DNA of 64,000 nucleotides from Cenarchaeum sp. (GTDB lineage: Archaea > Thermoproteota > Nitrososphaeria > Nitrososphaerales > Nitrosopumilaceae): NCBI GenBank assembly GCA_963692915.1, contig OY843584.1, positions 384,001 through 448,000 of the forward strand, given 5' to 3'. The first letter of the stretch is position 1, and the number at the start of each line of letters is the position of its first letter. Positions 35,831-60,234 of this stretch are shown here, in pieces. Made by a program: the position numbers and the translations under genes. The notes beneath the pieces were generated by a model. The model ran no database searches. It was not told where the DNA came from and saw only the letters and a list, made by a program, of their open reading frames with translations.

Positions 35831-38800
35831 ATGTGGGCTTGGAGGGTTGCCGTGGTGGCTCTATTGGGGGTTGTTGCGCTCGGTGCGATCTCGGGCGTGA
35901 TGGCCCAGGAGGCGCTGACGGCAAGCCCACTCACGACGCGCACGCTAGTCGACGGCGTGCCCACGCAGGTCCACGCAAAGGTCGGCGCGACAATATCCAT
36001 CTCCGTCGAGACGTCCTCGGCAGTCACGATTACCGCCTCGGACGTGTCGTTCTTTGGACGTGGCAGCCAGGCCGTTGCGCCAACGTCAGTGACCGGCAGC
36101 GGGACGTCATGGGAGGTGCGCCTCAACGTGGTCAACTCGCACGTCGAGGGCCCGCTGCGGTTCTGGATTACCGCCCATGATGCGGTGACGCCGACTAGCA
36201 CGATCACGCTCACCGAGGCCGACATTGCCGGACACCATGTCAGCATTGACCGGACGCGGCCAGAATTCACCATCACGCCGACGTCATCGACGACAACGCT
36301 AGTGACGCTCAACGAGCCGCTCTCGCCGCTAGTTGCCGCGTCACGCGAGCTTGACGTGTCACGTTGGTGCGTCAATGACTCACAGACCCCGCAGATCATG
36401 TGCTTATCCACTGCCGACTATAACAGGGACGTGGCGTCTGCGACCGTGCTGTCCTTGGGCCTGTCGCCGGTGATCCTGCTGACCCACGAGCCGGTGGTTC
36501 ACCTCTCGGACATGGTTGTGGTCTTTGACCACCACGACACCTCCACGCCGTTCCTGTTCACCGACGCTGCGCTGAACCTTCCGGCGATCCCCGCATCACA
36601 GTCGAGTGTTGAGGCGTCCATGCAGCGCATCTTTGGGTCCCCGCCGGCCACCTCGTCTGACCACGTGTTTCCGTTCACCGCGGAGTATGATGTGGGCAAC
36701 CGGCGGATCCTTGTGCGCATGGGAGACGCGATAGGGCTGACCGGCCAGCTGACGCTGGCTGACTGGCGTGTGGAGCACGGGGAACCTTCGCCTGATGTCG
36801 CCTCAAATGACCTCCAGACACAGACCATCTCGCAGTCTCCGCCATCCGAGACGGATCTTCACGTCAGGTACATCGGCCTTGAGTCCGCCGCGGTGGTGCC
36901 CGAGAACGCAAACCTGTGGGTCACGTACACGCCGAGCGACTCCATGCCGCTTCGCGTGGGCACCGCCGGAATGATCCTCACGGGCAGTGCCCAGTTTGCG
37001 CTAAACCCCGACACGCGGCCAACGACGCTGACGGTCAGCGCGCAGCGCGATTCGGGCTCCGGACCGGCCTCTTATGATGGCGACTTGAGGGCATCTGACA
37101 CCATCACAGTCACGATGCGCCTCAGGGAGGCGACACTGAGCACGTCAGTCCCGACGATATCGTTCTTTGGTGCGGCGGCCGTGGACATGACGGGCACTGC
37201 AGGCGGGCGGGACTGGACCGCCACGCTTGCCGTTCGTGACGATGACGCGTCCACCGATGGGGTCAACGAGGGCACGCCTGAGGGCAGCGTGGAGTTTGAC
37301 ATCACTGCGACGAACGTGGGGCGCACGGTGGTGCGCTACGACGAGTCGCACGTGACTGACGGCTCGTCGGTGAGCGTGGATCGCACGCCGCCACAGGTCC
37401 GCACGGCAAAGTTTGTGGACGCGCGCTCAGAGATACACGTTGTGCCCGATGAGCCCGTCTCGTACACGTCATTGACGGATCTCTTTACGGCCACTAGCGG
37501 CGGCTCGGAGGTGGAGCTCTCGGACGTGACGTTTGACGCGTTGCGTGGCGCATACGTGATCGAGATCACCGCGGCCGCGCAGGGCTCGACATATGTCCTC
37601 ACGCCTGCGGCGGGGGCGATCACGGACGGTGCGGGCAACGCGCTTGCCGGCTCGTTCAGCGTGGTCGACGAGTCCGCCGCGCCGACAGTCACATCAATGT
37701 CACTTGATGTCCTGCGCGCCGACGAGGCCGGCATGTATGTGCTCCGCAGCGGGGCGCACGCCGAGTACGCAATGGCCGATGACGTGATCCGCGTAACCCT
37801 CGGGCTCAACGAGATCACCAATCCCGTCACGGTGCCGACCGTGCGCTTTTTTGACCAGCAAACTCCAGTTGCCATGAACGGCTCACCGGGCGACATGGCC
37901 TGGACGGCAGACTTTCTCGTCACGTCCATGACGCGTGAGGGGTCTGTCGAGTTTGACATTGTCGCCCTGGACTATGTCGGCAATGCCGCAGACATTGACG
38001 AGACTGGCGTCACGGACATGTCAGACGCAATCGTCGACCTCACGGCGCCATTGGCGTCACCGTCCATGACGTTTAGCTACACTGCGACTCCGACGGGATT
38101 CACGCTGTTCTTTGCGGAGGATCTTGACGACACGACTGTCATGACCTCGGCCTTTGTCATAAAGAGTCCCGAGGGCGGCGTCGTCATGCAGAGTGCCGCG
38201 CCGACCTATGCGGCCTCGACGTCTAGCGCGCAGGCCGGCGTGAGCTTTACGACTGCGGCGCTCTCTGACGGGAACCACACAGTCGAGATCGCCATCTCGC
38301 TCACCGACAGGGCCGGAAACTCGTACGTGGCCGACGATGTGACCGTATACGTTGACACGACGGCCCCGACGGTGACTGGGATTGCCACCGAGTCCTCCAC
38401 GACGACAATAGTGACGCTTGATGAGGCAGTCACGGCCGACGGCAACGCAGCTCAGCGCTTGCGGCACTGGACGGTGACTGATGATGACCCTGATGGGTCG
38501 TCTGGCCCTATAGAGGCTCCCGTGAGGGCGATCTCAAACGTGGAGGTGATAGACACGGAAGGCATGGCCGCCGCGTCTGGCGAACGCATACGCATCACGC
38601 ATGCGTCCCTGGCCTCGACTGCCTCGACTCCGACTGTGGCGTATGCGCCAGTGTCTACTGACGTTGGTGGCATCGGTGCTGTCACCCTTGGCCTGGTGAC
38701 TGACGCCTCGCCACCGCTGGCCACCAGGCTTGCTGCCGTGTCGGCCACAGAGGCAGATGACCTTGCGTCCCCGACGGCGAATGATCCGAGCTTTACGAAC

Positions 38801-41800
38801 GCGCGCACGATAACGTTTACGCTGAGCGAGCCTGTGGTGCAGACGTTCCTTGAGCGAACGACCGTCTCGCCCCCCATTGGGACCCTGACTGTCGCAGTTG
38901 ACGGGCTCCGTGTCACCCTGAGCGGCACGACTAACGCCATTGACGGCACAACATACTCGATAGAGGTGCCGAGCGCCGTGACTGACTCAAAGTGTGTTGG
39001 CGTGACGGACACATGCGTGCCCAACATGTTCTCGCTCGATAGTGTAGAGCTGGCCTATGGTGACACATACGCCCCCACGGCACAGTCTGCGACCTTTTTG
39101 TCCTCCTCGCGCATAGATGTTGAGGTCAGTGAGACACTCGATGCAGACACGCTGTCTGGCATTACAGTAAGCCCGCCATTGGGAACTCTCACAGTGACCC
39201 AGTTTGACCTGACAGTCGTGATCGGCTTTACCGGCACGCCGAGTGTCGGCACGGAATATACGGTGACGATTCCGACGACGGTTACTGATGTGGCCTCTCC
39301 GGCCAACGCCTTTGCCCTCACCACGCTCGCGACGACGTACAGAGCTGACACGACTCAGCCCACAGTGGTCTCTGCCACCCAGACGTCATACGGCGTGATC
39401 GTCGTGAGGTTTAGTGAACCCATCCAGGGGACTACCAGAACGAGTGACTGGAGCATCTGGGATGACCGATATCCGGCTAATCCATTTCCTGCCATAGTGA
39501 ACGTCGCGCTAGGCGGCGGCTTTGCCACCTCTACGACTTCGCTCACAATACCTGGAACCGGTGCCCTTGTGCGAGAGATCACGCTGTCAGCCAGGGTCGA
39601 GTCCACAGAATCCAGGCCGTATACTCAGCATGTTGGGAGCGGACTTACGGATCTGTCGGGTAACGTCCTTCGAGACACTGACAGGAGCAATATCCATGGT
39701 GCCGTACGTTTCACGGACAAGGCGCCTCCTGAATCCCTGGGCATCGTGGTGGAGTCGACCAGACCACGCCAGGCAGATCTTGTTTCGGGCATCGACATTG
39801 GCACACTGCTCGTAAAGGCCGGAGACGAGGTGACATTTACTGTTGAGTTTGATGGCAGTTCGACCCCGTTTCGCGATCGTTATCTGCGCACACAACTTGA
39901 GGTAGACCCAACAATACAGTACGTTAGGGGCGGCACGACATACCCGCTGGCATTCCATAGTGATGTGGAGAACTGGTCGCACACCCTGACCATCACAGGG
40001 GACATGCCTGATGGCCTGCTCGTGCCGTTCCTGACGATCAAGGACAGAGTAGTCCAAAACGGACCGGGCAACATCGGAGAGTACCTGGGAGCATCCACCA
40101 ATCCCAATGCGTGTGACCGTATCGCGGACGCTATACCTGCGAATCGGGCGACAGGGTGCCTGCAGGGGGTGGGACTAGAGCAGGGCCTGCCACGGCTCTT
40201 CCCCACCGTGGACAACTCGCCGCCGGTGATCGAGTCAGCAGAGACGACGACGACTACGACGACGCTAGTCACGCTTGATGAGCCTGTCCTCACATCTACG
40301 GGCACGCCCGCCCAGATTGCTGACAACTGGGCGATGACTAGCGGCACAGATACCGTCAACGTCAGCTCGGCGGCCGTGGCTGGCTCTGAGGTGACGCTCA
40401 CACACGATACGCTTGACACCTATGCGACGCCGACGCTCACATACACGAGGGGGGCAACTGAGGATGCGGGACGCATCATTGACAGGGTGGATAACAGCCT
40501 TGCCCAGGCAGACTCGGTTCCGGTGGCAGACGGCACGGCGCCCGCGTTCGTCTCGGCAACCATTGGGGCATCACCGTCGCGCACAGTCACGGCGACGTTC
40601 AGCGAGGATATCGCCCGGTCCTCGGTGAGCGCCACGACGATAATGCTTGAGGACTCGGCCGGCACGGCCGTCGAGGGCACCCTGCTGTACCACGATCCAG
40701 ACAACGAGGACACCGTGGCGATAACGTTTCCGTCCAGCGCTGTGGCGCTAGACGGCATGTACACCCTGCGCATAACGACGGGGATAACGGACGCCTCGCC
40801 GCAGGCAAACCCGCTGCCAGCCGAGGCTACGGAAAGCATAGCCCTAAACACGGAGGCTCCGTACATGGTGTCGGCCACAACACGCCTTCCACCCTCATCA
40901 CTCCTTGCTCTCTCTGGATACAACACTCAAGCTGGACCTGTCAGCACCGTGTTACACTTGTATGATGGGGCACAGTCTAGGTCTGTGGTGCCCTCGCCGC
41001 TTAGCGCAATCACTACGGTGACACTCAGCGAGCCTGTGACTACGCCGGGTTCTGCCACTATGGAGAATGTGAGATCCCACTGGAAAGTTGCGGCGGGCTC
41101 GACGGACCTGACCGTGACGTCCGTTGCCGTGTCTGGCAGGACAGTCGCCATAACGCACTCTATACCGGCCAGCACGGACAGCACGTTCACGGTAACGCAC
41201 ACGGTCGGCGACAGTGCGGGGCTCGTCATGGACTCGGCGAACGCCAACATCGCAGACGATGAGAATGCCCAGTCATCTGATGGCATCATCCCACTGTGGA
41301 GCGCGCGTCTCACAGGCCCCACGACTGCGCTAGTGACGTTCAGCGAGCCGGTGATGCAGGTTCCTGGCACAACTGCCATTGACGCGTGGAGGGCATCTGG
41401 CCGCGGTGACCTTGCTGACCAGCGAATGGGAGAGGACAGGTACAGCCGCGCAAACGACGGCGATCGCCGCCTGGCAAGCGCCACGCTCTCAGATGACGGG
41501 AGGAGCATGACGCTGGAGATGAGCGCGGCAATACCCACAGACGACAGGGCGTACTCGGCCACAAACCTCCCCTGGATAAAGTACTATCCTGGCGCATTTG
41601 CGAGGCAGACGCCGCTGCCCGCCACAGCCATCGCCAACACAATCGTGGACTTGGCAGGCAATGCGCTAACTGACCGCGTGTACCAGACAGGCGACGGCAT
41701 TGCCCCCGTTCTCACAGTCGCCTCGTTTGACGGCACGACGATGAGCGTGACGTCATCCAGGCCGCTTGACTCGACGACGATCCAGGGCGGCAACTTTGTC

Positions 41801-44800
41801 CTGAGGGGGCCGGGCTCGCTGACAACCACACACACGCCGACGCTTGTGCCGGGCGGCACGACTAGCGCGTTCTCGCTGACCTTTTCGCCTGCCCTGACGC
41901 TGTCCGGCTCGTACACGATGGTTCTCGGGGACGTTTATGACACGGTCACCACGCAGCATCCGGGCGAGACCAGGGCAGGCAACCGCCTCGTCCTCAGCGA
42001 GCCGACAGTCATGTTCCTCCCGTCGGGCGCCACGAACCCAGTGCTCGCATCGGCCGAGACGCTCACAAAGACGACGACGCAAGTCACGTTTAATCAGCCC
42101 GTGGAGGGCATGACGTCGCGCAGCCAGTGGACCATCACGTCACAGGGCCTGACGATAAATGTCCTCGGCGTGGCCGCCGGCTCGGCGACACCCGTGGATA
42201 GCGCCGATCCAATAACGGTTGCCCGCAGTGGCGCGACGCTGACAATGACGCTGCTCCACGATGCCATCTCCTCGGGCCTGACGCCTGGGATTGACTATGA
42301 TCCCGCCGGCGATACCAGTATAGCCGATGCGAACAGGCTGCGCGACAACTCCAACAACGCCATATTGGGGACTGGCACCACTGGCCCCACGGCGACTGAC
42401 GGCATTCCGCCGCAGGTGTCTGATGCGACGTTCATTGCACGCAACGGGCTCCGGTTGACCTTTGAGGAGCCCCTTGCGCAGGCAAGCGTGACGGCGATGG
42501 GCACGACATTTACGATCACCGACCCGTCAGGGGATCCCGTGAGCCTTGCGAGTGATAATCCCGTGAGCTATTCCGCATCGTCACAGTCAGTCACGCTGAT
42601 CCTCGAAGACTTCACCACGGAGCATGGCGGCTATGGCATCACAATCGTCGGCGTAGCTGACACCGCGTCGCCTACCGCAAACTCGTGCACCGCCATGACG
42701 TGCACGGCAACGGCGGACCGCGAGGTTCAGCTTCCGGTCCTGGGCACCACTGGCTCGCTTGTCGCCAGCGTCCTGTCAGGCGACCCGCTGGCCGCAAAGT
42801 CCACAAACCCAAACATCGCCACGGGTGGCGACACGCTGCGTGTGGCACTCACGCTGGCCGGCATTGTGCCTGATCCCGCCGCGCCAGCCGTGATCGACTC
42901 GGCGCTCCTGAGGGATATTGACAGGCCGTCGATCAGCTTCTTTGGTGGCGAGGGGATGGCCATGACTGACGTCACACAGGCAGGCTCGCCGGCAAGGTCA
43001 TCCTGGTCTATAGACTATACCGTGCCGTCCACGCCGCAAAGGGATGCACAGGCCGAGTTTTCGATAACGGTCGGACATAACCTCGACACAGCCACGTTCA
43101 CGCGGGCCGAGCTGACGTCTGGCACGGCAGTCAGCGTTGACACAAAGCCCCCCGGCCTCTCGGCGTCTGCTGCTGACCCCCTGTACACGAGAACCGAGGC
43201 GGTGGGCGCGACTGCTGGCCTCGGCTCGGCACGCAACGCGCAAGTGGGCGACGTGATGCTCGTTGTGCTCACCACTGACGAGCCGCTCTCTGGCGTCATC
43301 CTCGGCGATGCGACATTCTCTAGCGGCCGTGCCGCAACAGATGTCTCGTCTGACCACACGTCGCGCGGAATCACCCCAGCGCTACCGGAGGACACGTACG
43401 TCTACTCGCGCACCGTGGCCTCTGATGAGCCCGAGGGTCCGGTAGAGTTCTCGATCACGGTTCGCGACGCAGTCGGCAACACGGACACCCTGGACGCCGA
43501 TGACCTGCCCACGGGGGACGACGCGACGGGCTATCGCCTGAGCGTCGACAGGACAGCGCCTACTGTGAGCAGCGCAATGTTCACCTCTCCTACAGTGCTG
43601 ACCATAACGTTCGGCGAGTCCGGGATTCAAACGCTGCCTGCGACACTCACGCTGACTAGGACATCTACGCCAGGCACGACGACTTCGACGCTGACTGCGA
43701 CGCTCTCCGGGGAGCCTGATGGCGCGTCTGTGACATACACCGTTCCGGCAATCCAGCCGTACGCCCACGAAAGCGCCGAGTACACGTTCACGCTGCCTGC
43801 GACGATCCTCGATGACGCGCTCAACGCGTACGTGCCGCCCGCAGACGACATCGTGGTCTCCGAGTCACCCGTCACGATCTCCTCGGCTGAGACATCGTCG
43901 ACTACCGTCACGGACGTCACGCTCTCGGCGCCGCCGGTCGCACTGGGCACCGATGCAACTCCTGCCACGCCAGCCACGCCTGCGCAGATCGCCTCGCACT
44001 GGTCAGTCTCTGAGGTCATCGACGGCACGACAGTCGACAGGGAGGTCACGGGCGCTGCGATAACGGACTCCACGATTCGCCTCACGCATGCGCCCCTTGC
44101 GTCATCATCCTCGACTCCCTCGGTGGCGTACACGGCTCCTGCGTCACGGGCGGTCGGACAGCTCGTTGATGCCACCTCGAGCACGCTCTCTGTCCAGACG
44201 TTTAGCGGAACCGCGGCTGATGGCGCGCCGCCCGTGATGACGGCACGCTTCACAACGCCTGCAATCATCACAGTCACGCTGGACTCGCCGTACGTGACCA
44301 CGCCGGCCGAGCGGGCTCCGGCGCTGTCAAACACAATGTCCCCGATGGACAACGCCGCGACGTTCACGCTGGCCCAGGCCCCGCCCACGACGCTCACGCT
44401 GAGCCTTGGCGGCACCGTGGATGACGGGACATACGAGTTCACAATCACGGTATATGACTCAAACGGCAACATGGGAGTACAGGCCTTTTCACTCGACAGG
44501 GACTCGACTAGCATATTCGCCTCGGCAAGAACCCTCTCGCACACAAGCGTCGAGGTCTCCTTTGCGCTCGGCACGGCGCTAGCGCAGGGCGTGACCTCCC
44601 TTGATCCCGCGCGCTGGACAGTCATCACGCCCGTGGAGGGCGCCCAGGGGGCCACAACGATCACAGTGGCCTCCGTGTCGGCCCTCGCGGACAACAAGGT
44701 GACGCTCACGCTGGCCTCGCCGGGCATTGTGGCCTCGGACGGCACGCCTGACACGGCGGCAACGCCGACCGTAAAGTACACGCGCGGCGTGGGTGCCGCC

Positions 44801-47800
44801 GTCGAGATCCTCGGCTCGACCTCTGAGGAGCTAATGTCAGACTCAAAGCGGGCAACTGATGCGGCCCCGCCGACTCCCCACTCGGCCGTGACGTCCTCGA
44901 CGACCAACGGCGAGAGGCTCGTCATGGCGTTCAGCGAGCCCCTGTACATTGGTTCCGTGGCCGCCCCCGGAATCCCAGATGCTGACATTACGTCCCAGCT
45001 CTCCATCCACGTCGACGGCGCCACGGAAGGCACGGCCCCGTCGTCCATATCGCGAAGCTCTGATGGCACAGAGCTCACGCTGGCCTATACGGGAGTATCG
45101 CTCAACCCCGTGGCCGCATCCACGTTTGTCCGATATGACGGCACGCTGCCTGTCGGCGAGCGCATTCTAGACGTCGTGCCCAACACGCTGTCTAATGCTG
45201 CCCTGGACACGCTCGTGACGGACATGATAGTGCCGTCGATATCCTCGGCCAGGACTGCGGGGGCCACGACGACAGAGGTCACGTACGACGAGCCGATCGC
45301 CCTGGTCGGCGACCCCGCCTCACTCTATGCGATAGAATTTCCGGCCGGAACCACGACGCCCCCCGGCTCTGTGGCCATAAAGGCCGGCGATCCCAGCGTG
45401 GCTGTCCTGACGCACTCGTCTGTCACGTATGGGGTGGACTCTACTGCGACTCTGGCCTACACGGCCGGCACGGCAACGCAGTCCGTGACTGATGCGGCAG
45501 CGGGCGCAAACAGGGCAGAGGCGGTCACGGCGGTGCGAATTGCCGACGGGATCGCCCCAAAGATAACGGAGGTGGAGACTGAGTCGCAGACAACGACGAT
45601 CGTGACGCTTGATGGCCCTGTAACGGCCGGCGGTGATGCCGCACAGCGCTCGCGGCACTGGACCGTGACTGACGTTGACCCTGACGGCACAGGGCCGGTG
45701 GCCGCGCCAGACAGGGCAGTCTCGGGAGTCGACACCATTGACGCGGCTGGCGCCATAGCCACATCGGGCATGCGCATTCGCCTCACGCATGCCGAGCTCT
45801 CAGACACGGCCTCGACGCCGACTGTCGCGTATGTCGCGCGCGTCGACAGCAATGCGGACGGCACGATCGACGCCTTAGACGAGCCAAGCAGGGTCATCGA
45901 CCCCGCCGTCGATGCGCTCAGCATGCCGGCGCCAAACATACTGGCCGACTATACGACGACTGCAACTGACAAGGCGCCGCCGGTTATAACGGCAAGGTTT
46001 GCGACTGCGACATCGATAACCCTGACGCTCAGCGAGCCCATAGAGCGCACGACGGCGCTCCTCACGCGCTCCAACTGGGACATTGACAGCGCAGGAACCG
46101 GTGACAATCCCCGCCTGCTCCAGACCTCCACGCAAACGGAGACGGCCGTGTCATACCCCGCCTCCACGCCATTATCCATGACGATTCGCCTTAACGATGC
46201 CGCATCTGACAATGTCCACACGCTTACCATCCCGGCCGGTATAGTCGACAGGGCAGATACGCCCAACGCCTATGTGGCATCGCGTGCGCTGACCGTCGAT
46301 CCGATCGCAGGAGTCGCGTTTACGGCAAGTGCGACAGGACAGTCAACGATCGAGATCACGTTCACCACGGACGTCGAGAGGATCGGCTCCGCTCCGCTGG
46401 CCACCTCGGCATGGATCGTCTACGAGACACCAACACAGGGCACACAGGCAGAGCGCATCCCGATCTCCTCAGTCTCAGCCCTTGCCGACAACAAGGTGAC
46501 ACTGACGCTCTCGCCCTCGCCTGGCAGGGATGCGCAGACGTCGACTGGAAAAACGCCATACGTCGAGTATGTGCGCGACACCTCTGAGTTTAGGGATGTG
46601 GCCACGCGTGTGCCCCTTGCGGCAGAGGCGAGCGCGGTTGCCACTGATGACACCGACCCGACGATAAAGTCGGCTAGAACGTCATCGACCACGCAGATCA
46701 CCGTCACGCTCAACGAGCCAGTCGGATTTGTGGGCACGGGAGCCAATGCGCCATCTACGGCAGGCCAGATCGCGCAGTGGAGTGCATGCGTCCCGCCCGA
46801 GGGTTCCTCGTCATGCAGTGTGGCCGAGACGCTCTCGAGCATCGGCATAGCCATCTCTGGCTCCACAGTGACGCTGAACTTTGCGCCGGCTGACGAATGG
46901 GAGACAGACGTCGTGCCGGTTGTGACATACCGCAACATCGACGAGCCAGAGGACTCTGAGACGCCCGTGGCTGACCTCTCGGAGCGCGCGCGCGCACGCC
47001 TAGTCGACGTCAACGGCAATGGCATGGACGCAGTGTCGTACCAGTCCGCTGACGGCGTCGCGCCGGTCATCGTGTCGGCATCGACGGCCTCGGTCAGATC
47101 CATCAACGTCGTGCTCTCCGAGGTGTCCGTGTTCGCCCCCGCGTCATCCACGTCGGCACAGCGTGGGCCTCACTGGACGGCCACTGTGGATGGCGATAGC
47201 AGTGTGGGCTCGACTGCGGCGATATCGACGGTATCGGGCACCTCGACTCTCACGTTCCGCGTCGCCTCTGATGACGCATGGACTGGAGACGACTCCCCGA
47301 CTGTCGCCTATGTGAACCCTGCCGGTGCCGGACGCGTGACTGACGTGCATGGCAACGCCATGCTGGTGGCCTCTGGGGTGATGACGACCAATGTGGCGGC
47401 TCCCGAGCTGCTCAGCGCAAGGACGGTGTCGCTTGGCCGCACCGAAGTGGTGGTCTCAAAACCCGCCCAGATCAACGCTGGCACGGCCGCACAGGTGATT
47501 GGGCACTGGTCACTTTTGGACATCGACGGGGATGACGCCGGCGATGCCCCTGATCCCGTGACGATCAGGGGTGTCCGCCTCGATGACAGCATATCCCACG
47601 AGCCGGGCTCGTCTGTCGTAGAGCTCTCCCTGTCCGGCTCGCTGCCAAATGGTGTCCACGAGATAACCGCACGCAGCACGATCGCCTCGACGGGAGGCGC
47701 GACGCCCTCGTCTGACCAGACGACGCGCATTACGTCCTATGTCCCGCCGATGGTCCTTGAGGACCTAACCTTGGGTGATGATCGCATATCGCTGCTGTTC

Positions 47801-50800
47801 AGCCACGATGTGGAAGAGTCCACCATCCTGGGCAGCCTAGTCCTGCCATCAACCATGACAGTGCGGGGAGACGACCCTGTGTCATTCCAAAGACTCAACA
47901 ACAAATTGGTCCATGTGGACGTGACGAGGACGCCGGACCTCGTGGAGAGCGTCACAATACGGGACACGATACGCTCAACTGAGGGACACCGGCCGCTCGG
48001 CGACCAGGTGATCAGCAAGTCGACCACCTCACAATCCCTCAGCGATGCTGGCGTGTCTCCTGACGGACGGTCAATATTGCTCGACTTTGACGCCGAAATC
48101 TCTGCAGCATCGGCAGTCGTGGCCGCCTTTGAGCTCCCAACAGGAGTCAGCTTTGCCGCATCTAGCCCCGTGGTGACCACGGCAGGCTCCACTCTCGTCA
48201 CGCTCAACCTGTCCTCACAGCTGCCCAGGGGCATTCACACAATCTCGACAAAGGAGACACCCGCACTGGTCAGTACGACTGGCTCCGTCCTGTATCAGGG
48301 CACGCACACAATTACGTGGGATCCGGCACCACACGTCCTTGAGCACGTCTCGACGTCGCCGGACGGCCGGACAATAACGCTCCACTTTAGCAGGTCAGTG
48401 GACACGAGCACGCTCACGCCGGCCAACATTGCGCTCTCGACGGGCACTGCGCTAACGCAGTCCCAGATATCGCACGCCGTCGGCCCCAGGGTGACGATCA
48501 CGCTTGATGCGCCGCTGGCCACAGGCACGCACTCTGTGACGGTGCGCACGGGCGTGACTGCGTCAGGGTACCCACTGCCCGGCGAGACGGTCAGGTCGTT
48601 TGTCCACATGCCGTCTGCGCCATCCATCACCTCGGCGTCGCTCTCAGATGACGGGCGAACAGTGACGCTGGTCTTTAGCCACGCGCTGGACTCGGCCACA
48701 GTCACGCCCGCGGCCCTGTCATACTCTGAGGCCCTTGAAGGCGTGGTCGGGGACAGAACGCGCCTGATCATAGATCACGACGATCTCTCCGGACCGGGGG
48801 CGGCACCAACACTGTCATACGACCCTGACACGTCGACTAGTGGGACCATTGCCCTCAATGGCGTCTCCACGTCGCTGGTGGAGGAGACGCCATCCCTGGC
48901 CGTGGCTGACGGCATCCCGCCGCGGCTCGTCGGCGACCCCGAGCTAGTGGGCTGGTCATTTGGCAAGATTTTTGGGCCTGAAAGCACCGAGACTCCCCCG
49001 CGAAACATGCAAGACGCCGTTAGGTTCACGTTTAGCGAACCGATGAACAGGGATGACCTGATCGTCACATTCGATGTTGGCGGAGCACAGGTTTCTGCTG
49101 CGCCGGGTCAGTTCGCTTTCTATCAAGGTTCTAGTGTGACAGCCCCTGGTAACACCTTTCTTAACACGCATAGAGGACAAATTATTTTCCCTTTGACATA
49201 CAAGACCGACGCGGGGATAGTTCGATTTGCCCCCTTGCCTGAATATCGGGATGAATCTACGTGGGGCCAGGTCATTCCTGGCTATAACAGCTTTGATCTT
49301 CCCCGAGCTGCGCTTGGTGCACACCTTGACACCACGAACATGATATACACGATCTATAATCAGGGCGGTGCGACCACAGAGGGTCTTGGTTTCGTTCGAT
49401 TTATAGATCTGGCAGATCACCCGACCGTTCAACTACGAGACGTGGCCGGAAATCCGTACATTCCCGACCAGTCCAGGAAACATGATGAATTTATCCTAGA
49501 GACAGACACTGTGGGTCCGAAGTTTCGTGCCAAAGTGGCCTCGCCGACACAGATCAATGTAGAGTATCTGGAACCCGTGGAGATCAAGCAGGGTCGGGAG
49601 CTGCGATCCGCTGATTGGAGGATAGATCTGACGCCAGACGACGATAGTGACAACGAAGACGGCAACCTCAATTGGATTGGGCCCACGGCAGTCACTCACG
49701 CGTTTGACGAGTTCCCCAACCCCGAATTCCTCTCCTATGGTGACCTTGGAACCAGGTCGAGACTCACGGTCATGCTCACAGTAGACCCGCCAACGGAGAC
49801 TGTGAATGCCATGTCGCCCCTTGACGCGACTCCCCTTGACGTGCACTATGTCGCAAGCTCGGCAGATGTCGCCGATGCGCGCTCTCATGACGCCGTTGTG
49901 CCATTCGCCTTCGAGTACCGTCCAGGGGTAACTGACAACACAGGCCATGACGCAATCGCGCCGGCTGCGGCATCACTGGTGACCACAGTCGAGCGACCGA
50001 CTGCCACGGAGGGGGAGTTTGCCGAACGAACAGGCGCGTTTGCGCATTACGCGATGGCTGGTGACAGGATCACGGTCAGCGCAGTGCTTGACTCACCGGC
50101 GCTTGCTGCAACCGCTGACGCGGGAGTGGACGTGGGCGTGCTCACGCCGTACCTGGAGCTGGGAACATACGCTGTGAACATGGAACAGGGCACCCCGCCG
50201 CAATACAGCGTCGTAATTCCCACGACAGTCACTGATGCTGATGGGATAGCGTTTGCTGCAGACACTAGCCACGCCGTGACGTACGTTGCCTCGCCGCCGA
50301 CACTCTCAAACCCGAGCTTTGGCGCCCCGTCGAGGATATTCATTGAGACAAGCGAGCCGCTAGATGACACGACGCTAACGCCCACTAGCGTCAGCGTGGA
50401 AGGGCTTGAGACGGTGCGGGTTGACCGCGAGATCGACCGCGTGGTGATAAACACGCGACATGACGCGATCCCAGGAAAATCGTACACGATCCGCATTGCC
50501 GACACGGTCACTGACACTGACGGGGTTGCCACGGCCGCAACGACGCTGTCGGTGCAATATCCCGTAAAGGCAACTGCGACTGCAAGGTTTGCCAATGACA
50601 ATCGTCTGGTTATAACGACCAGCGAGTGGATCGTCGAGAGCAATATATTGGACAGATACGTATCGCTCTCTGCAGTCGGGGGCACGTCGGAACCGCTGGA
50701 TCTCAAATCCGCTACATTCTTCTTCCCGCATCTCGGATTTAATATTGATGATGACGTGCCGACTGGCACGTACGAGCTCACATTCTCTGACTCGTTAGTG

Positions 50801-51502
50801 ACGAGCGCGGGCACGACGTTTGAGAGCCCGATCCTAGTTGAGCATGTGGCAGGCCTGCGGACGCCAGAGGGGGCGCCGACGGCATCCAACGTTAGGTTCT
50901 TTGGCCCGGAGCACATACAGTTCGAGATGGACCAGTATCCTGCCACATCGACGCTTGAGAACATCGAGGTTCCGACGCTTGGGGTAAAGCGCGTCTCGCG
51001 CGATGCACTGACGATCACGCTGGCCCTGGAGGGCCGCGCCGACAGGGTATCGTGGCAAGCGTCGTGGATCGTGCCGACTGCGGACTCCACGACGCTGACG
51101 CAGGGCCCAATTGACTTTACGATCACCGCCACGGATGCGGCCGGCAACGCAGGCGACATTGGGCAGTCAAGCGTGTCGACGGGAACCAACAATGCCATAG
51201 TCGACACGACGTTGCCGACATTTGAGGCAGCCATCGTGGCCTCAGACCGCACGAGCGTGACGTTCGTCGAGCCTGCGCGCGGGACGATCGTCGCGTCCGA
51301 GTGGTGCGTCGAGGGCATCGCCTCGGTGGGAGTGTCAGCTGACGGTGTAGAGTTTGCGCCGTCATACCCTGTCGTTGACGCGGCGACAGTCACGGAGGGC
51401 CAGACGTTCATCCTGCGCCACACCGCAGTGCCGCACGGAACCGAGCCGACAGTAGAGTACTCGCCAGGCGAGCCGTGCGCGCCAGATGCGCCCAGCGGAT
51501 AG
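35831..51502 (+). CDS. Giant (5,223 aa) secreted Thr/Ser/Ala/Asp-rich surface protein with roughly 40 Ig-like (Big_5/SwmB-like) repeats
   Basis: Uninterrupted 15.7-kb ORF; signal peptide MWAWRVAVVALLGVVALGAISGVMA; recurring D.(T/I)(A/P)P...T.VT(L/F)(S/D)EP...D.AGN units of ~100-130 aa. Confidence 0.92.
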   Translation: MWAWRVAVVALLGVVALGAISGVMAQEALTASPLTTRTLVDGVPTQVHAKVGATISISVETSSAVTITASDVSFFGRGSQAVAPTSVTGSGTSWEVRLNVVNSHVEGPLRFWITAHDAVTPTSTITLTEADIAGHHVSIDRTRPEFTITPTSSTTTLVTLNEPLSPLVAASRELDVSRWCVNDSQTPQIMCLSTADYNRDVASATVLSLGLSPVILLTHEPVVHLSDMVVVFDHHDTSTPFLFTDAALNLPAIPASQSSVEASMQRIFGSPPATSSDHVFPFTAEYDVGNRRILVRMGDAIGLTGQLTLADWRVEHGEPSPDVASNDLQTQTISQSPPSETDLHVRYIGLESAAVVPENANLWVTYTPSDSMPLRVGTAGMILTGSAQFALNPDTRPTTLTVSAQRDSGSGPASYDGDLRASDTITVTMRLREATLSTSVPTISFFGAAAVDMTGTAGGRDWTATLAVRDDDASTDGVNEGTPEGSVEFDITATNVGRTVVRYDESHVTDGSSVSVDRTPPQVRTAKFVDARSEIHVVPDEPVSYTSLTDLFTATSGGSEVELSDVTFDALRGAYVIEITAAAQGSTYVLTPAAGAITDGAGNALAGSFSVVDESAAPTVTSMSLDVLRADEAGMYVLRSGAHAEYAMADDVIRVTLGLNEITNPVTVPTVRFFDQQTPVAMNGSPGDMAWTADFLVTSMTREGSVEFDIVALDYVGNAADIDETGVTDMSDAIVDLTAPLASPSMTFSYTATPTGFTLFFAEDLDDTTVMTSAFVIKSPEGGVVMQSAAPTYAASTSSAQAGVSFTTAALSDGNHTVEIAISLTDRAGNSYVADDVTVYVDTTAPTVTGIATESSTTTIVTLDEAVTADGNAAQRLRHWTVTDDDPDGSSGPIEAPVRAISNVEVIDTEGMAAASGERIRITHASLASTASTPTVAYAPVSTDVGGIGAVTLGLVTDASPPLATRLAAVSATEADDLASPTANDPSFTNARTITFTLSEPVVQTFLERTTVSPPIGTLTVAVDGLRVTLSGTTNAIDGTTYSIEVPSAVTDSKCVGVTDTCVPNMFSLDSVELAYGDTYAPTAQSATFLSSSRIDVEVSETLDADTLSGITVSPPLGTLTVTQFDLTVVIGFTGTPSVGTEYTVTIPTTVTDVASPANAFALTTLATTYRADTTQPTVVSATQTSYGVIVVRFSEPIQGTTRTSDWSIWDDRYPANPFPAIVNVALGGGFATSTTSLTIPGTGALVREITLSARVESTESRPYTQHVGSGLTDLSGNVLRDTDRSNIHGAVRFTDKAPPESLGIVVESTRPRQADLVSGIDIGTLLVKAGDEVTFTVEFDGSSTPFRDRYLRTQLEVDPTIQYVRGGTTYPLAFHSDVENWSHTLTITGDMPDGLLVPFLTIKDRVVQNGPGNIGEYLGASTNPNACDRIADAIPANRATGCLQGVGLEQGLPRLFPTVDNSPPVIESAETTTTTTTLVTLDEPVLTSTGTPAQIADNWAMTSGTDTVNVSSAAVAGSEVTLTHDTLDTYATPTLTYTRGATEDAGRIIDRVDNSLAQADSVPVADGTAPAFVSATIGASPSRTVTATFSEDIARSSVSATTIMLEDSAGTAVEGTLLYHDPDNEDTVAITFPSSAVALDGMYTLRITTGITDASPQANPLPAEATESIALNTEAPYMVSATTRLPPSSLLALSGYNTQAGPVSTVLHLYDGAQSRSVVPSPLSAITTVTLSEPVTTPGSATMENVRSHWKVAAGSTDLTVTSVAVSGRTVAITHSIPASTDSTFTVTHTVGDSAGLVMDSANANIADDENAQSSDGIIPLWSARLTGPTTALVTFSEPVMQVPGTTAIDAWRASGRGDLADQRMGEDRYSRANDGDRRLASATLSDDGRSMTLEMSAAIPTDDRAYSATNLPWIKYYPGAFARQTPLPATAIANTIVDLAGNALTDRVYQTGDGIAPVLTVASFDGTTMSVTSSRPLDSTTIQGGNFVLRGPGSLTTTHTPTLVPGGTTSAFSLTFSPALTLSGSYTMVLGDVYDTVTTQHPGETRAGNRLVLSEPTVMFLPSGATNPVLASAETLTKTTTQVTFNQPVEGMTSRSQWTITSQGLTINVLGVAAGSATPVDSADPITVARSGATLTMTLLHDAISSGLTPGIDYDPAGDTSIADANRLRDNSNNAILGTGTTGPTATDGIPPQVSDATFIARNGLRLTFEEPLAQASVTAMGTTFTITDPSGDPVSLASDNPVSYSASSQSVTLILEDFTTEHGGYGITIVGVADTASPTANSCTAMTCTATADREVQLPVLGTTGSLVASVLSGDPLAAKSTNPNIATGGDTLRVALTLAGIVPDPAAPAVIDSALLRDIDRPSISFFGGEGMAMTDVTQAGSPARSSWSIDYTVPSTPQRDAQAEFSITVGHNLDTATFTRAELTSGTAVSVDTKPPGLSASAADPLYTRTEAVGATAGLGSARNAQVGDVMLVVLTTDEPLSGVILGDATFSSGRAATDVSSDHTSRGITPALPEDTYVYSRTVASDEPEGPVEFSITVRDAVGNTDTLDADDLPTGDDATGYRLSVDRTAPTVSSAMFTSPTVLTITFGESGIQTLPATLTLTRTSTPGTTTSTLTATLSGEPDGASVTYTVPAIQPYAHESAEYTFTLPATILDDALNAYVPPADDIVVSESPVTISSAETSSTTVTDVTLSAPPVALGTDATPATPATPAQIASHWSVSEVIDGTTVDREVTGAAITDSTIRLTHAPLASSSSTPSVAYTAPASRAVGQLVDATSSTLSVQTFSGTAADGAPPVMTARFTTPAIITVTLDSPYVTTPAERAPALSNTMSPMDNAATFTLAQAPPTTLTLSLGGTVDDGTYEFTITVYDSNGNMGVQAFSLDRDSTSIFASARTLSHTSVEVSFALGTALAQGVTSLDPARWTVITPVEGAQGATTITVASVSALADNKVTLTLASPGIVASDGTPDTAATPTVKYTRGVGAAVEILGSTSEELMSDSKRATDAAPPTPHSAVTSSTTNGERLVMAFSEPLYIGSVAAPGIPDADITSQLSIHVDGATEGTAPSSISRSSDGTELTLAYTGVSLNPVAASTFVRYDGTLPVGERILDVVPNTLSNAALDTLVTDMIVPSISSARTAGATTTEVTYDEPIALVGDPASLYAIEFPAGTTTPPGSVAIKAGDPSVAVLTHSSVTYGVDSTATLAYTAGTATQSVTDAAAGANRAEAVTAVRIADGIAPKITEVETESQTTTIVTLDGPVTAGGDAAQRSRHWTVTDVDPDGTGPVAAPDRAVSGVDTIDAAGAIATSGMRIRLTHAELSDTASTPTVAYVARVDSNADGTIDALDEPSRVIDPAVDALSMPAPNILADYTTTATDKAPPVITARFATATSITLTLSEPIERTTALLTRSNWDIDSAGTGDNPRLLQTSTQTETAVSYPASTPLSMTIRLNDAASDNVHTLTIPAGIVDRADTPNAYVASRALTVDPIAGVAFTASATGQSTIEITFTTDVERIGSAPLATSAWIVYETPTQGTQAERIPISSVSALADNKVTLTLSPSPGRDAQTSTGKTPYVEYVRDTSEFRDVATRVPLAAEASAVATDDTDPTIKSARTSSTTQITVTLNEPVGFVGTGANAPSTAGQIAQWSACVPPEGSSSCSVAETLSSIGIAISGSTVTLNFAPADEWETDVVPVVTYRNIDEPEDSETPVADLSERARARLVDVNGNGMDAVSYQSADGVAPVIVSASTASVRSINVVLSEVSVFAPASSTSAQRGPHWTATVDGDSSVGSTAAISTVSGTSTLTFRVASDDAWTGDDSPTVAYVNPAGAGRVTDVHGNAMLVASGVMTTNVAAPELLSARTVSLGRTEVVVSKPAQINAGTAAQVIGHWSLLDIDGDDAGDAPDPVTIRGVRLDDSISHEPGSSVVELSLSGSLPNGVHEITARSTIASTGGATPSSDQTTRITSYVPPMVLEDLTLGDDRISLLFSHDVEESTILGSLVLPSTMTVRGDDPVSFQRLNNKLVHVDVTRTPDLVESVTIRDTIRSTEGHRPLGDQVISKSTTSQSLSDAGVSPDGRSILLDFDAEISAASAVVAAFELPTGVSFAASSPVVTTAGSTLVTLNLSSQLPRGIHTISTKETPALVSTTGSVLYQGTHTITWDPAPHVLEHVSTSPDGRTITLHFSRSVDTSTLTPANIALSTGTALTQSQISHAVGPRVTITLDAPLATGTHSVTVRTGVTASGYPLPGETVRSFVHMPSAPSITSASLSDDGRTVTLVFSHALDSATVTPAALSYSEALEGVVGDRTRLIIDHDDLSGPGAAPTLSYDPDTSTSGTIALNGVSTSLVEETPSLAVADGIPPRLVGDPELVGWSFGKIFGPESTETPPRNMQDAVRFTFSEPMNRDDLIVTFDVGGAQVSAAPGQFAFYQGSSVTAPGNTFLNTHRGQIIFPLTYKTDAGIVRFAPLPEYRDESTWGQVIPGYNSFDLPRAALGAHLDTTNMIYTIYNQGGATTEGLGFVRFIDLADHPTVQLRDVAGNPYIPDQSRKHDEFILETDTVGPKFRAKVASPTQINVEYLEPVEIKQGRELRSADWRIDLTPDDDSDNEDGNLNWIGPTAVTHAFDEFPNPEFLSYGDLGTRSRLTVMLTVDPPTETVNAMSPLDATPLDVHYVASSADVADARSHDAVVPFAFEYRPGVTDNTGHDAIAPAAASLVTTVERPTATEGEFAERTGAFAHYAMAGDRITVSAVLDSPALAATADAGVDVGVLTPYLELGTYAVNMEQGTPPQYSVVIPTTVTDADGIAFAADTSHAVTYVASPPTLSNPSFGAPSRIFIETSEPLDDTTLTPTSVSVEGLETVRVDREIDRVVINTRHDAIPGKSYTIRIADTVTDTDGVATAATTLSVQYPVKATATARFANDNRLVITTSEWIVESNILDRYVSLSAVGGTSEPLDLKSATFFFPHLGFNIDDDVPTGTYELTFSDSLVTSAGTTFESPILVEHVAGLRTPEGAPTASNVRFFGPEHIQFEMDQYPATSTLENIEVPTLGVKRVSRDALTITLALEGRADRVSWQASWIVPTADSTTLTQGPIDFTITATDAAGNAGDIGQSSVSTGTNNAIVDTTLPTFEAAIVASDRTSVTFVEPARGTIVASEWCVEGIASVGVSADGVEFAPSYPVVDAATVTEGQTFILRHTAVPHGTEPTVEYSPGEPCAPDAPSG

Positions 51503-51688
51503 GCCCCCGACGGCGGCGCACTATAGGGGCCGGGGCATGCACAGCCCACCACGAAGAACACACTTGAATTCTTTAGAGACCGGCTCGAAGACGCTATAGT
51601 CTACTGAGCTTTTCCACGTTCTGCACAACGGCAAAATTGTGCTCTTTTGCGATTTGCTCTAATGACCCCATGTTGTGCATCTTCCATG

Positions 51689-57246: not shown

Positions 57247-60234
57247 ATGAGGACGAGACTGGGGGCTTTGGGATTTGCGCTCCTCCTGCTCATGCCCGCA
57301 TATGCGGCATCGCAGACGCCTGACCGGATAATCGTGGACAGGGACCTCGGCGAGCATGGCAGGGGCGACCACCTCTTTGTCCACGGGATACTCGCATCGC
57401 CGGATCAGGCAAAGTTCGTCATCGTGCAGGTGGCAAACCCGCGCGGCGAGCTGTGCAGCATACAGCAGATACAGCCCCTCTCGGAGGGCCAGTTTGTCAC
57501 CAAGGCCGTGCCGCTCCGCGGAGCGCTGTGCGGCATCGACGGTGAGTACGACGTGCGCATATTCTTTGGCGAGCACTCGCAGTCCTCCTCGTTCGTCCTC
57601 TCCGGACCCGGCGCAGAGGCGCCTGAAGGGGATGACACCCTCAGGGCGGCGCACGCCGCGCTTGACGCTCGCATTGCGCGCACGCAGGGGCTTGACACGG
57701 CATGGTACACGTCGCGCGCACTGGCCCTAGTCGGACCACTTGACACGATAGAGGCCGTCGAGCAGATCTATGTGGATCTCCTTGGCGACTCTTTTACTGA
57801 CTCGTCCCTTGAGGGACTTGACGTGACGCTGCGACGTGCCATACGTGACGCAATTGACGCAACGGGGGCACTCGAGCGCGACTCGGTTATATCCACAGAT
57901 GCCGCAAGCGAGATCAGGGACTTGCTGTGGGCAGCAATCATGTACCACGAGGCCGGCGACGCGCGCTCCTCGTACGCAAAGATAAACGAGGCGTATGTTG
58001 ACATACGCATATTCGAGCCATCAAGCGGCGCGGCTCCGGATCGCCCGCCCACGTTTGAGGAGCTAGAATCCACCGTTCTTAGCCTGATGATGAAGAGTGG
58101 CTCTCTCCTCTCAAAGGACGTTCGCTCCGACCTGTCGTTCATCCTGTCGCGCGGCACTGCCCCAATACACATTGAAAGCCTAAACTCGCTAGTCAACGTG
58201 CTGACGCACGCAAGGTATCTTGACATAGTGGAGCGCAAGGATGACGATCTTCACAAGCTCATAACGGGGGACTGGGTTGCACTGAGGCCGCGGGTAACCT
58301 CGGCGTCGACGATCGAGGCGACTGTGGCCCTAGAGGAGCAGACCTCGGCGCTGTATGGTGCGGCGATGGCACTGCGTGACCTCGACAAGGTGGAGAACTT
58401 TGTCAATGGTGACAGAGCCGGCGATCTTGGGATGCTGCTGCGCCCCGACTGGAACAAGATCGTCTCGGATATCAGGTCGGCGAGCTCGACTGAGGATATC
58501 ATGAATAGTGTGGACAATGTCACGAGGATAAAGGGAGTCGTCGACATATCCTCACGGCTAGAGCAGGTGATACGGCTCACGAGTGCCAACGGCATAGAGA
58601 CTGACATCACGCGCCAGTGGCCTGACCTGCTCTCAAGCGTGGGCGATGCGGGAGATCTTGATGCCATACTCCTAATCGTCAAAAAGTTTGAGGAATCGAT
58701 ACAGTCTCTGCGCGAGGCGCGCAGCCCACTGTCCTCGCTGGAGCTGGAATACCGTGCGCTGCGCGCAAAGGCGGATCAGCAGTCAGACAGGGCTGCGCTG
58801 GCCAACATTGACAATGCCCTCAATATACTGGATCTTGCGCAAAAGCTCTCCTCGGGCAACCCTACAGAGGCGCGCCGTGACAGGGTGGAGGTTCTAGTGG
58901 CGTGGGTGGTTCAGGAGGCCGACGCGATCAGAGATCGCCTAAACTCAAACACAGATGTCAACCAGACACAGCGTGCGGCGAGCATACTGGAGCGCGCAAA
59001 CTCGCTTGAGAGCCTCGGCGAGATTGGACTGCGCACAAAGAGGTTTGTGCCCGGATATTCAGACTATGTTGATGAGGTAAAGCAAAAGATATCGCGTGCA
59101 AGGGAGCTTGTGATATCAGGCGAGCTGCGCCTTGCTGATGACATTGTGCGAAACGCGCGCGCAGAGTGGATCGAGGTGGATGCCGCGTATCGCGATGATC
59201 CGCCGTCATCAGACGACTATGGGATTGTCGATGTCCGTCGGCGCGCATACACAGAGCAGGTAGATGGGCTCCAGAACGTTGCGGCACGGTTCCTCGTTAA
59301 CGGGACAGAAGAGGCGCGTGAGATGCGCCTTATCCTTGACAGGGCAGCAGAGTTCACCGAGCACGGAAACTTTGTAGACGCGCAAGAGTGGATAACTCGG
59401 GCGTACGAATACGCGCAGGATCACCTTAGCATGAAGCACAATAGCGTGATCTTTGACATAGAGCGCAACGAGGCTGCGCGCACGTGGATGATAAACGGGT
59501 TTGTCGAAAAGCAGGCATTTGACCGGAGAGAGGACATATCGGTCACGGTTCTACACGCCAACAACACGCTTCACAGCGAGCTAGAGTTCACCGACACAAG
59601 GCACGGCGCGTTCTCCATACCGTGGAATGGTCCGGGCGAGCCGGGCATATACATTGCAGAGCTTGCCTACCGAGACACGACATCGGCCAACATTGTGTAC
59701 ATTCCATACGATCTCGGCACTGCAGGTGACAGGGAACAGCGTCAGACTCTCTCGGGCGGCTCTGGCCTCATTGCCTCCTCGCGTGACCTCTTTGACCTGC
59801 GCGAGTTCATGCGTGGGTTCGGCGGAGAGCGATACCAGTCAAACATCGGGCGCATAGGGCCTGTAGTCGCCGACGCCGAGAAGGCCATCCTCGACAGGGA
59901 CGAGGCCGAGGCCCGCTCCAAGGTCGCCGAGCTGCGTGCCCTCATTGAGCGCTACCTCCCGCAGCGCTCCACCGATGCGGCAATACGCGCCGACTATGGC
60001 CAGGGCGGCCTGCTCCTAGAGGGCGCGATCAAAAAGTCGATCGCCTTCCCCGAGGACCTCTATGTCGACGTGTTCGACCAGTCCGGAGACCTCGTGACAA
60101 CTGTTGCGCTCACCGACGACTCGAACGGCTCGTTCTCGCAGAGCCTCGTGCGCAGCTTTGAGCCCGGCACGCACGTCGTGCTCCTCTCATACCATGACCT
60201 GCGCGTCTCGGACTTTTTCACCGTGGATCGCTAG
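57247..60234 (+). CDS. 995-aa exported protein, alternating beta-sandwich and long helical segments
   Basis: Signal peptide; three related beta-rich units (G.Y.V/G.Y.A/GTHVV) separated by helical regions. Confidence 0.8.
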   Translation: MRTRLGALGFALLLLMPAYAASQTPDRIIVDRDLGEHGRGDHLFVHGILASPDQAKFVIVQVANPRGELCSIQQIQPLSEGQFVTKAVPLRGALCGIDGEYDVRIFFGEHSQSSSFVLSGPGAEAPEGDDTLRAAHAALDARIARTQGLDTAWYTSRALALVGPLDTIEAVEQIYVDLLGDSFTDSSLEGLDVTLRRAIRDAIDATGALERDSVISTDAASEIRDLLWAAIMYHEAGDARSSYAKINEAYVDIRIFEPSSGAAPDRPPTFEELESTVLSLMMKSGSLLSKDVRSDLSFILSRGTAPIHIESLNSLVNVLTHARYLDIVERKDDDLHKLITGDWVALRPRVTSASTIEATVALEEQTSALYGAAMALRDLDKVENFVNGDRAGDLGMLLRPDWNKIVSDIRSASSTEDIMNSVDNVTRIKGVVDISSRLEQVIRLTSANGIETDITRQWPDLLSSVGDAGDLDAILLIVKKFEESIQSLREARSPLSSLELEYRALRAKADQQSDRAALANIDNALNILDLAQKLSSGNPTEARRDRVEVLVAWVVQEADAIRDRLNSNTDVNQTQRAASILERANSLESLGEIGLRTKRFVPGYSDYVDEVKQKISRARELVISGELRLADDIVRNARAEWIEVDAAYRDDPPSSDDYGIVDVRRRAYTEQVDGLQNVAARFLVNGTEEAREMRLILDRAAEFTEHGNFVDAQEWITRAYEYAQDHLSMKHNSVIFDIERNEAARTWMINGFVEKQAFDRREDISVTVLHANNTLHSELEFTDTRHGAFSIPWNGPGEPGIYIAELAYRDTTSANIVYIPYDLGTAGDREQRQTLSGGSGLIASSRDLFDLREFMRGFGGERYQSNIGRIGPVVADAEKAILDRDEAEARSKVAELRALIERYLPQRSTDAAIRADYGQGGLLLEGAIKKSIAFPEDLYVDVFDQSGDLVTTVALTDDSNGSFSQSLVRSFEPGTHVVLLSYHDLRVSDFFTVDR

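Follow-up and report, generated by a model that had tools for sequence, protein, structure and literature searches.

A circularly permuted block of Ig-like units inserted in a split domain of a giant archaeal repeat protein

Split domains have been described in RTX (repeats-in-toxin) adhesins of Gram-negative bacteria, such as AhLap of Aeromonas hydrophila and FrhA of Vibrio cholerae, where they are immunoglobulin (Ig)-like and project domains with adjacent termini (PMC12077191); what is projected there is one globular domain that binds a ligand (a carbohydrate-binding domain, an RTX roll, or vWFA) and whose termini are naturally adjacent. Swaposin, the plant-specific insert of aspartic proteinases, is a permuted unit of a tandemly repeated family inserted in another protein, and its standard explanation is permutation by duplication, in which the slice taken from a tandem array is out of register (PMC3320104); it consists of one four-helix unit whose native termini are connected by a short link. 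Tandem domain swaps are a misfolded state of repeat proteins, described as misfolds of identical neighboring domains, for which a 2019 review states that no experimental structure had been deposited (PMC6863430). Here we describe an arrangement that invites comparison with all of these. It is encoded by a giant open reading frame (ORF) in a 64,000-nucleotide stretch of Cenarchaeum sp. DNA (assembly GCA_963692915.1, contig OY843584.1, positions 384,001 to 448,000; hereafter the window), in which an Ig-like domain is split in a loop by an insert of Ig-like units that is itself circularly permuted.

The product of the ORF is built of Ig-like units (Table 1), and four domain classes were defined by jackhmmer searches, seeded with intact copies, of all 134 stop-to-stop ORFs that reach 600 amino acids (aa) in the genome that contains the window (G000). 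Class A is the class quoted in an earlier note on this DNA, and class B is Big_5-like. To avoid circularity, the profiles were retrained without residues 3851-4380 and 4701-5223, which surround two sites of interest: a class-A domain split near the C terminus (residues 4727-5132; event 2) and a class-C domain split at residues 3920-4308 (event 1). Protein positions are given as (nucleotide - 35831)/3 + 1, and the whole region lies within a single open frame.

At event 2, the natural sequence matches the class-A profile (length 120, built from 56 domain matches elsewhere in the genome with the split region excluded) in two pieces, one covering profile positions 9-79 at 24.7 bits and the other 52-118 at 39.0 bits. 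In silico excision of residues 4787-5067 yields a single class-A match over positions 9-118 of 120 at 72.7 bits, and it is only after this excision that a full-length match is obtained. Five intact class-A copies of the same protein score 66.8-130.9 bits, on a related profile rather than the one that gave 72.7 bits. Scanning 29 x 29 pairs of excision boundaries placed the optimum at a head end of 4784-4788 and a tail start of 5067-5071, on a flat landscape. BLASTP of the flanks against the protein itself pairs residues 4728-4754 with 634-660 (48% identity over 27 residues) and residues 5068-5129 with 684-740 (38% over 63, E value 1.9e-8), and both targets belong to the intact copy that the earlier note had named. 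The split in this class-A Ig-like domain falls in a loop; by the profiles, together with the predicted head-to-tail contacts described below, a beta-sandwich host is interrupted and the chain returns after the insert to complete it.

The insert comprises 281 aa of Big_5-like sequence that begins with a tail, continues with two full units, and ends with a head (B1 tail, B2, B3, and B1 head in Table 1). With the class-B profile trained without the region, a tail is found at residues 4791-4820 (profile 61-91), a full unit at 4823-4911 (profile 1-90, 48.5 bits), then a weak third unit, and a head at 5016-5070 (profile 1-56). When the B1 head and tail were joined in silico, they gave a single class-B match over positions 1-91 of 95 at 33.9 bits, compared with 9.6 and 12.2 bits (sum, 21.8) for the separate pieces. 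The joined unit aligns end to end with the intact unit at residues 1082-1176 (39.6% identity over 91 aa, E value 1.8e-14); the join itself is free of gaps, and the nearest gap lies 4 residues beyond it. The breakpoints of the insert are complementary, its first and last pieces being the halves of one unit placed in head-last, tail-first order inside a host domain. The unit at residues 1082-1176 of the same gene is, by sequence comparison, the closest surviving relative of B1. The split host, the permuted insert, and the complementary breakpoints had all been put forward in the earlier note, and each of them survives the use of profiles from which the region was withheld.

The gene has few relatives. 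Just 6 proteins were returned at an E value of 0.001 or less by a HMMER scan of 1.84 billion representatives, and 2 of these have the arrangement in full. A word-indexed search yielded three further proteins with it, and a search limited to proteins of 736-2100 aa found no homologs among them. Across 401 genomes of the family, the gene is confined to the genus of the window, where 3 of 5 genomes (counting G000) carry it, and it occurs in 0 of the 396 others; no ortholog match was obtained in G002 (72% complete) or G004 (91% complete). Clade I consists of the window protein and its counterpart in G001 (P0002), which are 99% identical in the region and 96% identical over the whole protein. Clade II consists of P0003, P0008, P0009, P0010, and a partial G003 contig (L003), which are 71-90% identical to one another and 47-51% identical to the window. 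One ortholog is labeled Thaumarchaeota by its source. The stop-free frame in G001 (L002, around 507432-508691 of G001:C1) is 5268 codons long versus 5232 in the window, a difference of 36 codons, and P0002, apparently the protein of G001, has 5223 aa.

The event 2 insert is found at the same place in all six sequences other than the window (L003 ends at a contig edge two residues before the insert and so shows the 3' junction only), and the frame is open and collinear across the region in all 7, down to about 47% identity. Conservation is highest at the far end of the insert: the 58-aa windows starting at residues 5014-5016, which cover the B1 head and the 3' junction, rank top over the whole 5223-aa protein, and 18 nucleotides (nt) over that junction (GAG GGC CGC GCC GAC AGG) are unchanged in L003, from the ~51%-identical G003 contig. 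Judged from these alignments, the event 2 arrangement is ancient, fixed, and strongly constrained and does not reflect a recent event, because all six other sequences share it, five of them at 47-51% identity. This is the very outcome, an arrangement common to all homologs, that the earlier note had named as counting against its own reading of a recurring process. As a separate observation, the stretch at 50858-51055 of the window (residues ~5010-5075) reaches 76% identity to P0008 against the protein mean given in Table 1.

Contigs of 4 sequencing runs from 3 studies bridge all four junctions of the two inserts. The earlier note had suggested a search for an empty allele and a circle junction; no contig of these runs joins across either insert, and neither an empty nor a circular form was seen in them, with the proviso that contigs drop rare variants. 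The insert encodes Ig-like units only, rather than a transposase, recombinase, or splicing domain, and the contigs of the 4 runs hold its filled form rather than a variable presence. Present-day mobility is not supported.

The same logic recurs in the class-C domain of event 1. In silico excision of its insert produces a single class-C match over profile positions 1-104 at 49.6 bits; the ends of the insert match the class-D profile as a tail (47-92) and a head (1-40) and, once joined, as one unit (1-93, 64.9 bits). The site is empty, and the class-C domain intact, in 4 of the 4 clade II proteins that cover it; this is known from proteins, the G003 assembly being without the event 1 region. In the full-length alignment of about 5,000 residues, event 1 is the only domain-scale indel between the clades, with 387 gapped residues within residues 3897-4306. 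The remaining indels measure 24 and 18 aa, and no in-phase gain or loss of a domain was seen over the aligned residues. Since event 1 is empty in clade II, such an insertion (or a precise loss) occurred at least twice in the lineage of this gene. Parsimony, applied with no outgroup, would have the nested design arising, or being precisely lost, a second time after the clades split. The class-D array nearest to the event 1 insert is found in this genome outside the window, in another giant ORF of 2268 codons, L020 (G000:C1:1445474-1452277, + strand); its identity is 28% over 383 aa to the whole insert and 38% over 97 aa to the joined class-D unit, whose nearest relative it contains. On sequence similarity this array is a possible donor lineage in a different gene.

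The earlier note had also called for a survey of other giant proteins for split and permuted repeats. Among 142 long proteins scanned, no split domains beyond events 1 and 2 were found; the sensitivity of the scan is limited, as it missed event 2 in the orthologs through over-extended partial matches. A third candidate, in the ORF at G000:C1:943840-952344, proved to be a false positive in which a complete class-C domain was cross-matched by profile B. Elsewhere in the same genome and outside the window, a stop-free frame of 25,697 codons (77 kb; G000:C1:1045961-1123051, - strand, loci L013-L016) carries 39 class-A and 44 class-D matches, and the split-domain scan flagged none there.

To obtain a structural view of event 2, AlphaFold2 (AF2) was run on residues 4721-5140 with a 7-row ortholog alignment (A2), which effectively samples two clades. 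The mean predicted local distance difference test (pLDDT) score was 58.9; within the insert it ranged from 57 to 92, with ~78-92 in B2 and ~69-85 in B3. The model of the insert is almost all beta strand, and the strands of the B1 tail fall at query residues 71-76 and 92-97. A Foldseek search of the PDB gave S-layer (surface layer) and Big_5-type Ig arrays as the nearest solved folds of the insert; the matches are to generic Ig arrays only, with a template modeling score (TM-score) of at most 0.26 by query and up to 0.32 by target. A beta model that matches Ig-like arrays is at odds with the four-helix fold of saposin-like proteins. An alternative alignment (A1), to which 35 intact class-A copies had been added, was not used for folding: MAFFT had placed their middle strands on the head of the insert. 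Alignments with extra class-B units or with head and tail fragments were misaligned worse than A1.

The pairing of the half-domains was examined with a two-chain ESMFold2 prediction, in which residues 4721-4822 (A head and B1 tail) were folded with residues 5005-5140 (B1 head and A tail) and B2-B3 was omitted. The interaction prediction score from aligned errors (ipSAE) was 0.66, 0.61, and 0.55, and the best of 3 controls gave 0.00; of 80 solved complexes 58 attain the mark applied to this score, as do 2 of 110 mismatched pairs, counts that are approximate because a custom alignment was used. The predictions gave 263-304 interchain contacts, of which the runs shared 70% or more, and the pLDDT of the partner did not fall below 61. 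Twenty-three of the 25 lowest-error contact pairs connect the B1 tail (query residues 72-80) with the B1 head (298-344), the other 2 connect the A head (24, 26) with the A tail (360), and 0 are of cross type. The prediction thus supports a pairing of like with like, A head with A tail and B1 tail with B1 head; the pairing is supported rather than shown because halves of Ig folds may pass from the memory of the model. If the first and last pieces of the insert pair as predicted, the ends of the insert would be adjacent.

We consider it probable that event 2 is, in a giant secreted surface protein, a fixed nested-domain architecture that arose once, before the clades split, and not a live mobile insert. 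The chain would leave the class-A domain in a variable loop between the fourth and fifth predicted strands, run through the last two strands of B1, through B2 and B3, and then through the first strands of B1, and finally return to complete domain A. Pairing of the B1 halves would close B1-B2-B3 into a loop and bring the ends of the insert together, as insertion into a loop demands. The B1-B2-B3 module would project sideways from the fiber and would probably serve as an interaction site. Its origin was most likely single and before the split of the two known clades: part of a tandem Ig-domain array would have been copied into the loop as an out-of-register slice that spans an integral number of units, and only slices with complementary ends would fold and persist.

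Several results weigh against this reading. With the single sequence as input, AF2 gave a pLDDT of 34.5 and no fold for residues 4721-5140. With the 7 rows, both host halves stayed below 50 (query residues 1-71 and 345-420), leaving the class-A domain unfolded, and the B1 pieces, which are the parts that should bring the insert ends together, reached only 53-66. The two-chain prediction lacks B2-B3, draws on an alignment of two clades, and may succeed from what the model remembers of Ig folds. Closure of the ring through B2-B3 is an expectation from geometry. Among donor candidates, none is closer than about 40% identity. An earlier class-B profile, trained with the region included, read the pieces as two chimeric domains in linear order. 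The family assignment is also uneven along the protein: Pfam Big_5 (PF13205) matches the first 2500 aa strongly (E value 4.7e-23, 82.4 bits against a cutoff of 23.6, in six stretches), and the Pfam search gave no Big_5 match at an E value of 1 or less in the second half of the ORF, which holds the insert and shows sub-threshold matches to Big_13, DUF4625, and DUF4469 only. The insert units match the in-house class-B profile, seeded at residues 1082-1176, and PF13205 is listed by the database for the orthologs as whole proteins.

The strongest competitor to a single ancient origin is the reading of the earlier note, in which both inserts come from one recurring, microhomology-driven DNA process; it deserves to be taken seriously, but we consider it rather unlikely. 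Recombination in the tandem array could free a circle of whole units, which then integrates by a single crossover at a 5-bp microhomology, or a replication template switch could use the same 5-mer twice. Under either version, selection would not be needed to account for the 5-mers at the flanks, the permuted order, or the length in whole units. The AGGGC copies are present at both ends of event 2 exactly where the earlier note placed them, in frame with each other (Table 1), and GACAG flanks event 1 at 47585-47589 and 48752-48756, also in frame and at the same offset. The two events indeed share one logic in different host classes and with different 5-mers, and for each of them a same-offset 5-mer has a chance expectation, among 20,000 random in-frame position pairs in the gene, of 1.2% when it must lie within 5 nt and of 2.4% when it may lie within 8 nt. 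Further points in its favor are that the insert ends are complementary to within 0-4 residues, that the single domain-scale indel between the clades is an event of this kind with its site empty in all four divergent orthologs, and that candidate donor arrays exist in the same gene (residues 1082-1176) and in another giant ORF of the genome.

The recurrence claimed in the earlier note therefore stands, given the empty event 1 site in the divergent orthologs, but it does not establish a microhomology-driven process. The AGGGC repeat is weak evidence for microhomology, because the earlier note knew of the repeat when it set the event 2 boundaries, the divergent clade lacks the 5' copy, both 5-mers fall on Gly or Asp codons that the domain families favor at these loops, and selection for foldable inserts by itself predicts complementary ends. 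At the 5' junction, L003, the sole divergent ortholog with DNA, reads GCC GCG ACG CCG (Ala-Ala-Thr-Pro) and has no AGGGC. Against a recurring process there are also the lack of joints in the contigs of the 4 runs, the count of just 2 split domains among the long proteins scanned, and the divergence of the inserts, which share no more than 40% identity with any candidate donor, so that the junctions cannot be traced. Microhomology is a reasonable, if unproven, origin for the events, and a recombinase, though possible, is not needed for them. We are more doubtful still of a general form of this idea, in which a specific DNA route gives giant archaeal Ig-repeat surface proteins their side branches: whole-unit circles, freed when tandem repeats recombine, would re-enter coding loops at microhomologies of a few bases, a closed Ig ring on a split domain would be a native, selected tandem domain swap, and this gene would hold two such events of different age.

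It is also conceivable that nothing is nested at all and that four Ig-like domains simply follow one another here, with A head and B tail fused into a chimera at the start and B head and A tail into another at the end, both produced by recombination between related units. The jackhmmer class-B profile that included the region aligned residues 4746-4820 to positions 15-91 and residues 5016-5101 to positions 1-85, as whole domains, and all the classes are Ig-like with common strand patterns. Profiles trained without the region give partial matches only, in class B as in class A, and by strand count one chimera would probably be a strand short and the other would have one too many. The like-with-like pairing predicted for the two chains, with its many interchain contacts, would be unexpected for independent linear domains. 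We regard this reading as improbable.

A nested architecture under selection is also far easier to reconcile with the data than one in which the half-domains are decayed, nonfolding remnants of a disruptive insertion, tolerated near the C terminus and without a role, which we find very improbable. The low pLDDT of both host halves and the divergence of the A head between the clades (Table 1) would fit such decay, but the frame is open and collinear in all 7 sequences, the B1 head and 3' junction form the most conserved window of the protein, and the host after excision reaches 72.7 bits along the full-length profile, within the range of the five intact copies on the related profile. An assembly artifact, to which repeat-rich genes are generally prone, can be practically dismissed, since the arrangement is repeated in the independent assemblies G001 and G003 and in four database proteins, all four junctions are bridged by contigs of 4 runs, and units at most 40% identical are too divergent to collapse.

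Returning to the described systems, a nested, fixed event 2 would resemble the RTX-adhesin split domains in that a beta-sandwich unit near the C-terminal end of a giant repeat fiber is interrupted and the chain buds out and returns, so that a module is projected off the axis. It differs from them in what is projected: three fiber-type Ig units take the place of the single globular ligand-binding domain, and they are compatible with insertion only through one unit that is split over both ends. Pfam gave no RTX-type or type I secretion families at an E value of 1 or less in either half of the protein. The split domain is best seen as a functional analogue of those of RTX adhesins and not as a family member, because RTX and type I secretion features are absent and the organism is archaeal.

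With swaposin, the insert shares a circularly permuted unit from a tandem-repeat family placed in a host. In the present case two whole additional domains, and not a short link, connect the native termini of the permuted unit, a beta-sandwich takes the place of the four-helix fold, a repeat unit of the fiber itself serves as host, and the design recurred in one gene. The topology would be that of the tandem domain swap in the cited review, where the outer pieces make up a terminal domain and a central one combines the C-terminal part of one unit with the N-terminal part of a second; unlike those misfolds, the topology here is encoded by the gene and conserved, and the outer and inner domains are of different classes. 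Ordinary in-phase gain or loss of Ig or Big_5 repeats involves the same building blocks and the same kind of protein, but leaves every domain contiguous. By analogy, then, the closest kinds are the RTX-adhesin split domain in function, swaposin in origin, and the tandem domain swap in topology. No paper on permuted multidomain Ig inserts or on nested repeats in thaumarchaeal giant proteins was found in a literature search of titles and abstract openings. What is new here is a multidomain beta-sandwich insert made compatible with a loop by splitting one unit over its ends, twice in one archaeal gene.

Repeat fibers are usually thought to change by whole, in-phase units; in this protein the sole domain-scale change between the clades is a nested, permuted block, and an older block of the same design is its best-conserved part. 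Should the predicted pairing be true, an elongated multidomain segment can be fitted into a loop when one unit, split over both ends, closes the segment. This would offer a natural template to engineers who wish to branch beads-on-a-string proteins, as well as a native example of a topology otherwise treated as a misfold. Its relevance to protein evolution and design rests on a predicted rather than a solved fold. Residues 4721-5140 would also be the likeliest functional site of this giant surface protein in a thaumarchaeal genus; sponge-symbiotic members of the phylum have been described.

Table 1. Features of the giant ORF and of the two nested inserts, in window positions, with percent identity to clade II
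Feature	Position	Strand	Residues	Identity to clade II	Remarks
Giant ORF	35831..51502	+	5223 aa	44-45% (whole protein)	N-terminal hydrophobic signal-like segment, then ~50 Ig-like units that fall into four or more sequence classes (A, B, C, D)
Event 1, class-C head	47402..47587	+	3858-3919		Class-C profile 1-54; collinear with the intact domain in P0003, P0008, P0009, P0010
Event 1 insert	47588..48754	+	3920-4308 (389 aa)		Class-D tail, three units, class-D head; absent from clade II
Event 1, class-C tail	48755..48946	+	4309-4372		Class-C profile 43-104 in the natural sequence
Event 2, class-A head	50009..50188	+	4727-4786	38-43%	Partial class-A profile match; BLASTP to intact copy; boundary scan
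AGGGC, 5' copy	50187..50191	+			cAG GGC, Gln-Gly; absent at this junction in L003
Insert unit B1, tail	50189..50296	+	4787-4822	53-56%	Last two predicted strands; partial class-B profile match; predicted contacts with B1 head
Insert unit B2	50297..50575	+	4823-4915	56-60%	Complete, Big_5-like; seven strands in the AF2 model
Insert unit B3	50576..50857	+	4916-5009	32-35%	Divergent, complete; weak class-B match
Insert unit B1, head	50858..51031	+	5010-5067	69-76%	First predicted strands; partial class-B profile match
AGGGC, 3' copy	51030..51034	+			gAG GGC, Glu-Gly; kept in L003
Event 2, class-A tail	51032..51226	+	5068-5132	44-47%	Partial class-A profile match; BLASTP to residues 684-740

The genome that contains the window is a single contig of 1.64 Mb with 59% G+C. 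The neighbors of the giant gene are housekeeping genes, with shikimate-pathway enzymes on the upstream side and, downstream, a GHKL-type ATPase and cysteinyl-tRNA synthetase, and no mobile-element genes were seen around it. Further along the window, an ORF of 995 aa (57247-60234, + strand) matches no Pfam family at an E value of 0.001 or less. Two long antisense ORFs lie wholly within the giant gene, one of 483 aa at 43627-45078 (- strand) and the other of 504 aa at 50047-51561 (- strand); they are probably a by-product of coding sequence with 59% G+C rather than genes.

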